From NCBI RefSeq assembly GCF_045037415.1, contig NZ_CP173438.1: a DNA stretch of 64,000 bases. One strand, 5' to 3'. The notes beneath the pieces were generated by a model. The model was not told the DNA's origin and made no database searches. It saw only the letters and a program-made list of their open reading frames with translations. Source of the stretch: Escherichia coli. GTDB taxonomy: Bacteria > Pseudomonadota > Gammaproteobacteria > Enterobacterales > Enterobacteriaceae. This document shows positions 7,721 to 12,790 of this stretch, piece after piece (position 1 is the stretch's first letter; each line of letters begins with the position of its first letter). The position numbers and the translations under genes are program-made.

Positions 7721-7750
7721 TTGACAAAATGTGGCGTGGATCACTATAAT
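7721..7750 (+). promoter_or_regulatory. candidate sigma70 promoter upstream of metY (TTGACA -35, 18-nt spacer, TATAAT -10)
   Basis: perfect hexamers TTGACA at 7721-7726 and TATAAT at 7745-7750. Confidence 0.5.
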
Positions 7751-7842: not shown

Positions 7843-7919
<77 letters not shown>

Positions 7920-8042
7920 CTTTCCCTTAGAGTCCTTTTTCAAATATACTGTGAAGACTTCGGCCTTCGTAGTGGGATTTGAAAAAATCCTTCTGGAAAG
8001 TGCTCCAGACCGCAGTTGCGGTTATAGGGTTCAGTTATATAA

Positions 8043-8066
8043 AGCCCCGATTTATCGGGGTTTTTT
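8043..8066 (+). terminator. Rho-independent terminator/attenuator between metY and rimP
   Basis: AGCCCCGATTTATCGGGGTTTTTT; a second hairpin+T-run (GGGCTTTAGGCCCTTTTTTT) at about 8089-8108. Confidence 0.55.
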
Positions 8067-8125
8067 GTTATCTGACTACAGAATAACTGGGCTTTAGGCC
8101 CTTTTTTTATGTCTTGGGGGTGGGC

Positions 8126-8578
8126 TTGTCCACATTAGAGCAAAAATTAACAGAGATGATTACTGCGCCAGTTGAGGCCCTGGGTTTTGAACTGGTTGGC
8201 ATCGAATTTATTCGCGGTCGCACATCCACACTGCGCATCTATATTGATAGTGAAGATGGCATCAATGTTGATGATTGTGCTGATGTGAGCCACCAGGTAA
8301 GTGCTGTGCTGGATGTTGAAGACCCCATCACCGTTGCTTATAACCTGGAAGTCTCCTCACCGGGTCTCGATCGCCCACTGTTCACGGCTGAACACTACGC
8401 CCGTTTTGTCGGAGAAGAGGTGACTCTGGTTCTCCGTATGGCGGTACAAAACCGTCGTAAATGGCAGGGCGTTATCAAAGCGGTAGACGGTGAAATGATC
8501 ACAGTTACCGTCGAAGGTAAAGATGAAGTGTTCGCGCTGAGTAATATCCAGAAGGCGAACCTGGTTCCCCACTTTTAA
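8126..8578 (+). CDS. rimP: ribosome maturation factor RimP
   Basis: ORF 8114..8578; in-frame TTG at 8126 gives 150 aa (M)[27 protein letters not shown]...; start codon choice follows my recollection of the K-12 protein. Confidence 0.85.
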
Positions 8579-8605
8579 TAGTCTGGATGAGGTGAAAAGC
8601 CCGCG

Positions 8606-10093
<1,488 letters not shown>

Positions 10094-10117: not shown

Positions 10118-12790
10118 ATGACAGATGTAACGATTAAAACGCTGGCCGCAGAGCGACAGACCTCCGTGGAACGCCTGGTACAGCAATTTGCTGATGCAGG
10201 TATCCGGAAGTCTGCTGACGACTCTGTGTCTGCACAAGAGAAACAGACTTTGATTGACCACCTGAATCAGAAAAATTCAGGCCCGGACAAATTGACGCTG
10301 CAACGTAAAACACGCAGCACCCTTAACATTCCTGGTACCGGTGGAAAAAGCAAATCGGTACAAATCGAAGTCCGCAAGAAACGCACCTTTGTGAAACGCG
10401 ATCCGCAAGAGGCTGAGCGCCTTGCAGCGGAAGAGCAAGCGCAGCGTGAAGCGGAAGAGCAAGCCCGTCGTGAGGCAGAAGAATCGGCTAAACGCGAGGC
10501 GCAACAAAAAGCTGAACGTGAGGCCGCAGAACAAGCTAAGCGTGAAGCTGCTGAACAAGCGAAACGTGAAGCTGCGGAAAAAGACAAAGTGAGCAATCAA
10601 CAAGACGATATGACTAAAAACGCCCAGGCTGAAAAAGCCCGCCGTGAGCAGGAAGCTGCAGAGCTCAAGCGTAAAGCCGAAGAAGAAGCGCGTCGTAAAC
10701 TCGAAGAAGAAGCACGTCGCGTTGCTGAAGAAGCACGTCGTATGGCGGAAGAAAACAAATGGACTGATAACGCGGAACCGACTGAAGATTCCAGCGATTA
10801 TCACGTCACTACTTCTCAACATGCTCGCCAGGCAGAAGACGAAAGCGATCGTGAAGTCGAAGGCGGCCGTGGCCGTGGTCGTAACGCGAAAGCAGCGCGT
10901 CCGAAGAAAGGCAACAAACACGCTGAATCAAAAGCTGATCGTGAAGAAGCTCGTGCAGCAGTACGTGGCGGTAAGGGCGGAAAACGTAAAGGTTCTTCGC
11001 TGCAGCAAGGCTTCCAGAAGCCAGCTCAGGCCGTTAACCGTGACGTTGTGATCGGCGAAACCATCACCGTTGGCGAACTGGCGAACAAGATGGCGGTTAA
11101 AGGCTCTCAGGTCATCAAAGCGATGATGAAACTGGGCGCAATGGCAACCATCAACCAGGTTATCGATCAGGAAACCGCACAGCTGGTTGCTGAAGAGATG
11201 GGCCACAAAGTTATCCTGCGTCGTGAAAACGAGCTGGAAGAGGCGGTAATGAGCGACCGTGACACGGGTGCTGCGGCTGAACCGCGCGCGCCGGTTGTGA
11301 CCATCATGGGTCACGTTGACCACGGTAAAACCTCTCTGCTGGACTACATTCGTTCAACGAAAGTGGCCTCTGGCGAAGCGGGCGGCATTACCCAGCACAT
11401 TGGTGCATACCACGTTGAAACTGAAAACGGCATGATCACCTTCCTGGACACCCCGGGGCACGCCGCGTTTACTTCAATGCGTGCACGTGGTGCGCAGGCA
11501 ACGGACATCGTAGTCCTGGTTGTTGCTGCAGACGACGGTGTAATGCCGCAGACCATCGAAGCTATCCAGCACGCGAAAGCGGCGGGTGTTCCGGTGGTGG
11601 TTGCTGTGAACAAAATCGATAAACCAGAAGCCGATCCGGATCGCGTTAAGAACGAACTCTCCCAGTACGGCATCCTGCCAGAAGAGTGGGGCGGCGAAAG
11701 CCAGTTCGTACACGTATCTGCAAAAGCGGGTACCGGTATTGATGAACTGCTGGATGCTATCCTGCTGCAGGCGGAAGTTCTGGAGCTGAAAGCGGTACGT
11801 AAAGGTATGGCGAGCGGTGCGGTTATCGAATCCTTCCTCGATAAAGGTCGTGGTCCGGTTGCTACCGTTCTGGTACGTGAAGGTACTCTGCACAAGGGCG
11901 ATATCGTTCTGTGTGGCTTCGAATACGGTCGTGTTCGTGCAATGCGTAACGAACTGGGTCAGGAAGTGCTGGAAGCGGGTCCGTCCATTCCGGTGGAAAT
12001 CCTCGGCCTGTCCGGCGTACCGGCTGCGGGTGATGAAGTTACCGTTGTACGTGACGAGAAGAAAGCGCGTGAAGTTGCACTTTATCGTCAGGGTAAATTC
12101 CGCGAAGTTAAACTGGCGCGTCAGCAGAAATCTAAACTCGAGAACATGTTCGCCAACATGACCGAAGGCGAAGTTCACGAAGTGAATATCGTCCTGAAGG
12201 CAGACGTACAGGGTTCTGTGGAAGCAATTTCTGACTCCTTGCTGAAACTGTCTACTGACGAAGTTAAAGTGAAGATCATCGGTTCTGGCGTAGGTGGTAT
12301 CACCGAAACCGACGCTACCCTGGCTGCGGCGTCCAACGCCATCCTGGTTGGCTTCAACGTACGTGCTGATGCCTCTGCACGTAAAGTGATTGAAGCGGAA
12401 AGCCTGGATCTGCGTTACTACTCCGTCATCTATAACCTGATCGACGAAGTGAAAGCGGCGATGAGCGGTATGCTGTCTCCGGAACTGAAACAGCAGATTA
12501 TCGGTCTGGCGGAAGTTCGTGACGTGTTCAAATCACCGAAATTTGGTGCTATCGCAGGTTGTATGGTTACCGAAGGTGTGGTTAAACGTCACAACCCGAT
12601 CCGCGTTCTGCGCGACAACGTGGTTATCTACGAAGGCGAGCTGGAGTCCCTGCGACGCTTCAAAGATGACGTTAACGAAGTCCGTAACGGTATGGAATGT
12701 GGTATCGGCGTTAAGAACTACAACGATGTCCGCACTGGCGATGTGATCGAAGTATTCGAAATCATCGAGATCCAACGTACCATCGCTTAA
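10118..12790 (+). CDS. infB: translation initiation factor IF-2
   Basis: 890 aa [23 protein letters not shown]...; GTP-binding motifs GHVDHGKT and NKIDK; repetitive charged N-terminal region. Confidence 0.96.

Follow-up and report, generated by a model that had tools for sequence, protein, structure and literature searches.

Translation of Escherichia coli rimP probably starts at a UUG codon

Comparative analysis of the rimP locus of Escherichia coli indicates that the main translation start of this gene is very probably the UUG codon at positions 8126-8128 of a 64,000-nucleotide stretch of genomic DNA (referred to below as the window; all positions are counted in it). We infer the corresponding N-terminus in the cell from Shine-Dalgarno (SD) geometry, conservation, the onset of coding-type substitutions, stop codons in orthologues, the N-termini of homologues and the RimP profile. 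All of these favour the UUG at 8126 over the one at 8114, as the original prediction had anticipated. The same start is already used in RefSeq MG1655 and by PGAP; the finding is therefore already known.

Reading frame, ribosome-binding site and leader

Between approximately 7.5 and 10 kb, the window holds the argG (minus strand) / metY-rimP-nusA-infB region of E. coli. The 801 bp from 7900 to 8700 matched 5424 of 5426 complete E. coli genomes, with at least 99% identity in 5418, and the features annotated under these matches were tRNA-Met, rimP and nusA. The gene is directly upstream of nusA-infB (nusA starting at 8606 and infB, downstream of nusA, at 10118). It is the same gene as K-12 rimP (b3170, formerly yhbC or P15a), with the same operon position in metY-rimP-nusA-infB and the same annotated TTG start. 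No difference of substance from K-12 rimP was found, the strain being other than MG1655 and carrying insertions and deletions elsewhere in the window.

Three further observations concern the locus. In a comparison with NC_000913.3 3276200-3326131, collinearity of the window with MG1655 extended between yhbX (about 4.5 kb) and yraQ (about 28 kb). Toward both ends the window was out of register, which implies that it differs there by insertions or deletions specific to the strain. Upstream of metY, the plus strand carries a perfect match to the sigma-70 consensus promoter at 7721-7750 (TTGACA and TATAAT, separated by an 18-nt spacer), presumably the known operon promoter P-1 or P0. Finally, rimP is 465 bp long in E. 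coli T309.Ta3 (L004, NZ_CP128255.1) through a 12-bp tandem duplication, GTCGAAGGTAAA, at the equivalent of about 8510. The duplication repeats Val-Glu-Gly-Lys in the C-terminal domain, and the start region of this strain is the same as in the window.

The features discussed below are the following, all on the plus strand.

7843-7919, plus strand: metY, initiator tRNA gene and first gene of the operon (MG1655 annotation mapped on the window; direct reading)
8041-8070, plus strand: terminator t1, hairpin AAAGCCCCGATTTATCGGGGTTTT (8041-8064) with a T-rich tail (terminator scan)
8084-8086, plus strand: in-frame TAA opening the rimP frame (direct reading)
8089-8108, plus strand: terminator t2, hairpin GGGCTTTAGGCCC (8089-8101) with a run of seven T, directly 5' of the SD (terminator scan)
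8114-8116, plus strand: in-frame TTG, 154-aa candidate, rejected (SD absent, -2.4 kcal/mol; poorly conserved)
8116-8123, plus strand: Shine-Dalgarno sequence GGGGGUGG (8-bp duplex with the 3' end of 16S rRNA, -13.2 kcal/mol)
8120-8122, plus strand: in-frame GTG, 152-aa candidate, rejected (part of the SD duplex)
8126-8128, plus strand: UUG start codon of rimP, best supported (conservation; SD; predicted unpaired probability 0.87)
8126-8578, plus strand: rimP coding sequence, 150 codons and TAA stop (ORF listing; coordinates match RefSeq/PGAP; NF000927 and Pfam)
8156-8158, plus strand: first in-frame ATG, internal Met11, 140-aa candidate (SD absent, -2.1 kcal/mol)
8606-10093, plus strand: nusA, the gene after rimP in the operon (ATG start, SD -11.5 kcal/mol)

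After the TAA, the rimP frame reads CTG GGC TTT AGG CCC TTT TTT TAT GTC TTG GGG GTG GGC TTG TCC ACA TTA GAG CAA AAA TTA ACA GAG ATG. The two in-frame TTGs of the original prediction were found by direct reading at 8114-8116 and 8126-8128. The first is also the first canonical start after the TAA and opens an ORF (8114-8578) of 154 aa; a product of 150 aa does, as stated, need the second. The claim that the frame lacks an ATG near its 5' end holds between the TAA and 8156 but not beyond, since an ATG occurs at 8156, 30 nt 3' of TTG 8126, where it encodes residue 11 of the 150-aa protein. A further candidate, GTG 8120 (152 aa), had been missed. The other non-AUG starts put forward for the window, TTG for pnp (14964) and GTG for ubiT (24856), coincide with the starts annotated in MG1655. 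The GTG at 10589 (plus strand), the internal start of IF2-beta, also agrees with the MG1655 annotation.

The four candidate starts were scored by the best pairing of the 20 nt upstream of each with the 3' end of 16S rRNA. The energy was -13.2 kcal/mol for TTG 8126, -4.3 for GTG 8120 (at zero spacing), -2.4 for TTG 8114 and -2.1 for ATG 8156. As background, approximately 1.25% of window positions score -11 kcal/mol or better. The SD before 8126 exceeds the chance expectation, while bare start codons are trivial. Its GGAGG-equivalent core (8116-8120) is separated from the UUG by 5 nt, and this codon is predicted to be mostly unpaired (0.87) in the structural ensemble. UUG 8126 is thus a canonical start-class codon with 16S-complementary sequence at a workable spacing, the combination that characterizes SD-directed initiation. 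The duplex itself contains GTG 8120, and its 5' edge overlaps TTG 8114, so it can serve neither of them.

The two terminators had been positioned upstream of rimP by Brandi et al. 2019 (PMC6511841). A 48-codon ORF starting with GTG (7951-8097, plus strand) lies between metY and rimP; it overlaps t1, and its stop codon falls in the loop of the t2 hairpin. This ORF corresponds to "CDS115" of the PIRT-Seq study, where it was proposed to encode a rimP leader peptide and where validation by western blot failed (PMC12350097). Many genera have C or T as the third base of this stop codon. Given this variability and the position of the stop in the t2 loop, conservation of the ORF may reflect RNA structure rather than coding. 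CDS115 was considered for its relevance to the choice of start and set aside, as it is in a different frame from rimP. A mini-ORF starting with ATG (8109-8138, plus strand, MSWGWACPH*), out of frame and overlapping the rimP SD and start, was rejected because its ATG is not conserved. Indeed, some Enterobacteriaceae have ACG or ATT in its place, and two of the distant loci described below (L090 and L091) lack it; judging by this variation, the mini-ORF is probably fortuitous.

Conservation of the start region

A scan of species-representative genomes yielded 80 loci, mostly from Enterobacteriaceae and with 92-99% protein identity, 77 of which aligned without gaps. TTG 8126 was invariant in all 77 of these Enterobacteriaceae loci. 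Just upstream, codon -1 (GGC) was also found as GGT, GCC, GCG or GAC, coding for Gly, Ala or Asp, and codon -3 (GGG 8117) was GAG (Glu) in two loci, where the change G8118A produces the consensus SD GGAGGTG. Over the whole rimP coding sequence, the variable sites at codon positions 1, 2 and 3 numbered 30, 16 and 127. The first 13 codons gave 3, 1 and 9, and the 13 codons upstream displayed a flat distribution (4, 5 and 5). Third-position variability thus starts at 8126, indicating that the coding signature begins there. As judged from these substitutions, the block 8114-8125 is conserved as a signal rather than as coding sequence.

DNA was also read for 11 divergent gammaproteobacterial lineages, with 45-66% protein identity. 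Positions are given below as codon offsets, 0 being the equivalent of 8126, -2 that of 8120 and -4 that of 8114.

L089 (Ca. Profftia tarda): TTG GGA GCA TGA TTG TCC; TGA directly before the aligned TTG, GGGAG 5 nt upstream
L087: aligned GTG; TAG four codons upstream, the three codons between without a start codon
L091: CTT at -4, GTA at -2, TTG at 0; start codon at offset 0 only, GGGG upstream
L092: ACA at -4, GAT at -2, TTG at 0; start codon at offset 0 only, AGGAG 5 nt upstream
L090: GTG at -4, GTT at -2, TTG at 0; GGGAG 5 nt before the TTG
L098: TTG start behind GGAGG
L095 and L096: GTG start
L093 and L097: ATG start
L085/L086 (Glaciecola-type): ATG GAG TTG GGA TTG TCA; ambiguous, GGAG 6 nt before the second TTG

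Offset 0 was the sole position with a start codon in all 11 lineages. Upstream in-frame starts fail to explain these orthologues, given the TGA at -1 in Ca. Profftia, the TAG at -4 in L087 and, in L091 and L092, the absence of a start codon at both -4 and -2. The Glaciecola-type locus is annotated in two ways, NCBI using the second TTG (MSQLEKKL, 152 aa) and JGI the ATG. The latter is at the equivalent of 8114, and on this reading of the codons a longer form of RimP may be made there.

Two features of the surroundings were also kept. Wherever the contig was long enough (L085-L093, L097 and L098), nusA was found 3' of rimP. A t2-like hairpin, with a GGGC-loop-GCCC structure and a T-run before the rimP SD, was observed in L085, L087, L089-L092 and L097. 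It is kept down to approximately 45-55% protein identity, including in the Glaciecola-type lineage (Alteromonadales), which indicates that the arrangement of a terminator followed by a ribosome-binding site is old.

Database annotation and alternative starts

In RefSeq, MG1655 rimP (b3170, NP_417639.6) spans 453 bp and 150 aa, corresponding to a start at window position 8126. PGAP gives the same rimP start in other strains (WP_001300397.1). That NP_417639.6 is at version 6 fits earlier revisions of the record. When the 154-aa translation was compared with the RimP equivalog profile NF000927, it scored 264 bits, against a cutoff of 162, with positions 1-151 of 151 aligned on residues 5-154. Pfam placed PF02576 (RimP_N) on residues 15-86 and PF17384 (RimP_C, SH3-like) on residues 89-154 of the same translation, both well above gathering scores. 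The database annotations and NF000927 are not independent of earlier decisions on the start of rimP itself. The 150-aa sequence MSTLEQKL... is identical in nine PDB entries (7AFI and eight others) from cryo-electron microscopy of E. coli 30S assembly intermediates; these entries indicate that the 150-aa form is competent for 30S binding, the native N-terminus being a separate matter. A more diverse set of RimP homologues was drawn from a search of 1.84 billion cluster representatives. Among approximately 135 such representatives, the modal annotated N-terminus was at offset 0 (49 entries), and about 100 lay within -3 to +3.

The remark about frequent errors of automated annotation at such starts is supported by the rimP homologues. 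Indeed, only 59 of 120 homologues with at least 85% identity carry the offset-0 start. The GTG in the SD is used in 19 others, such as Serratia and Yersinia entries beginning with MGLS, and approximately 35 have 11 to 70 additional residues upstream; seven could not be placed by motif search. Annotated lengths in this set range from 142 to 219 aa. The homologues of 187-219 aa were considered as a longer RimP and rejected: they are gene-caller extensions into leader-derived sequence, including residues resembling those of CDS115. From their sequence, some of these long entries would fit loss of the CDS115 TAG combined with a one-base change in the T-run. Many metagenome and older pipelines err in two ways, starting either from the GTG inside the SD (152 aa) or from the leader (160-219 aa).

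Four alternatives to initiation at UUG 8126 alone were weighed. In the first, UUG 8126 is the main start and minor initiation at 8114, 8120 or 8156 yields low-abundance N-terminal proteoforms. E. coli genes often have alternative starts a short distance apart, and all three positions hold usable start codons. Ribosome profiling with tetracycline (TetRP) gave signals at two sites in 22 genes (PMC4909307), and the TRAINSPOTTER study assigned 14.6% of start-site coordinates to alternative sites. However, none of the three codons has a usable SD or is kept as a start in distant orthologues. We therefore consider minor initiation at these codons unlikely.

The second alternative places the start at GTG 8120, giving a protein of 152 aa. 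This triplet is invariant in the 77 Enterobacteriaceae loci and, as described above, is the start in 19 of the 120 database homologues. Its invariance is nevertheless expected, since it sits inside the SD; the only pairing available upstream of it is GGGG. In distant orthologues its position is occupied by the non-start codons GCA, GTT, GTA, GAT or TTA, and in Ca. Profftia it is followed by the TGA. Moreover, the codon after it (GGC) takes Ala or Asp, unlike the tightly conserved residues that come next, and the curated RimP profile begins two codons later. A start at GTG 8120 is thus very improbable.

The third alternative is TTG 8114, the first start of the open frame, giving 154 aa. It corresponds to the longest ORF with a canonical start, and its position is ATG in the Glaciecola-type orthologue and GTG in L090. 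Against it, TTG 8114 has no SD of its own and overlaps the one that serves 8126. It is CTG in five of the 77 Enterobacteriaceae loci, is annotated as the start in none of the 120 close homologues, is excluded by the in-frame stops of L089 and L087, and is replaced by CTT in L091 and ACA in L092. This reading has almost no chance of being correct.

Finally, a start at ATG 8156 (140 aa), the sole ATG close to the beginning of the frame and one that gives a protein about as short as database entry P0089 (142 aa), deserves hardly any weight: it lacks an SD, many Enterobacterales have Leu or Ile in place of Met11, the ten codons upstream of the ATG are conserved at the protein level with most of their variation at third positions, the residues that they encode are included in homologues and in the NF000927 profile, and P0089 itself begins with MSTLEQKL and is therefore not truncated at its N-terminus.

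Initiation at UUG and the non-AUG start as a conserved trait

With UUG 8126 as the main start, initiation would be of the ordinary SD-directed type. The 3' end of 16S rRNA would pair with GGGGGUGG at 8116-8123, and this pairing would position UUG 8126, which lies 5 nt past the GGAGG-equivalent core, in the P site. Initiator tRNA would then read UUG as fMet, giving the 150-residue RimP (MSTLEQKL...). The apparent Leu-Gly-Val-Gly codons TTG-GGG-GTG-GGC (8114-8125) would be non-coding and would form the ribosome-binding site directly after t2, which would account for their conservation. Residue 2 of RimP is Ser, and methionine aminopeptidase specificity leads to removal of Met before such a residue; therefore, the mature protein probably begins at Ser2.

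Published start-site data were searched for rimP. The available texts of the literature contained no rimP N-terminal peptide, initiating-ribosome footprint or other start-site evidence. The main text and three supplements of the TRAINSPOTTER N-terminomics study, in their available form, made no mention of rimP, P0A8A8, b3170 or STLEQKL, and the TetRP paper and its supplements (PMC4909307) mentioned neither rimP nor yhbC. Trypsin would release an N-terminal peptide of only six residues, STLEQK, which may be one reason for this negative result on RimP.

The start codon of rimP is non-AUG in 9 of the 11 divergent lineages (TTG in six, GTG in three and ATG in two), in addition to TTG in 77/77 Enterobacteriaceae. 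An SD, usually of GGAG type, precedes it in all of these loci, and most have a t2-like hairpin and T-run just upstream. In TRAINSPOTTER, ATG accounts for 91% of confirmed E. coli starts. At non-ATG rates of 10-30%, finding 9 of 11 would have a probability of approximately 5e-8 to 6e-4, assuming independent draws, which the lineages are not. The excess of non-ATG starts in rimP, uncorrected for phylogeny and for the start-codon usage of each lineage, is to be taken as a lead rather than as an established result.

Three systems invite comparison. The pnp gene (14964), which is in the same chromosomal cluster and is also ribosome/RNA-related, has an annotated UUG start like rimP. Expression of pnp is autoregulated via RNase III processing of its leader; to our knowledge, no comparable regulation through the start codon exists for rimP. 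Like rimP, infC is linked to translation and has a conserved non-AUG start, in this case AUU. IF3 discriminates against AUU in the autoregulation of its own gene, and accepts AUG, GUG and UUG. As UUG belongs to the accepted class, IF3-type autoregulation with the feedback logic of infC, considered for rimP by analogy, is not expected. The third system is that of ftsH and other genes whose UUG starts, passed over by automated annotation for other codons, were re-mapped by tetracycline-inhibited ribosome profiling at a time when only 81 UUG starts were annotated in E. coli (PMC4909307). These starts resemble that of rimP in lying behind functional ribosome-binding sites. In contrast to rimP, which the re-mapped set does not include and whose K-12 annotation is UUG already, they have experimental backing from footprints and lacZ fusions.

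NusA, IF2 and RimP are made from the same mRNA. It is conceivable, though we hold it to be somewhat doubtful, that the weak non-AUG start of rimP is itself selected and deeply conserved, and that the combination of terminator, SD and weak start could set RimP low relative to NusA and IF2. The same combination could make RimP synthesis depend on read-through and on initiation capacity. A description of this conserved combination for rimP was not found in the literature searched.

Altogether, these results confirm the current K-12/PGAP start of rimP, and their practical value is small in that respect. The comparative arguments used here (stop codons in orthologues, SD geometry and the onset of codon periodicity) are reusable for other non-AUG starts. 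If selection for a non-AUG start in rimP is true, it would be a modest addition to what is understood of expression ratios in the metY-rimP-nusA-infB operon.
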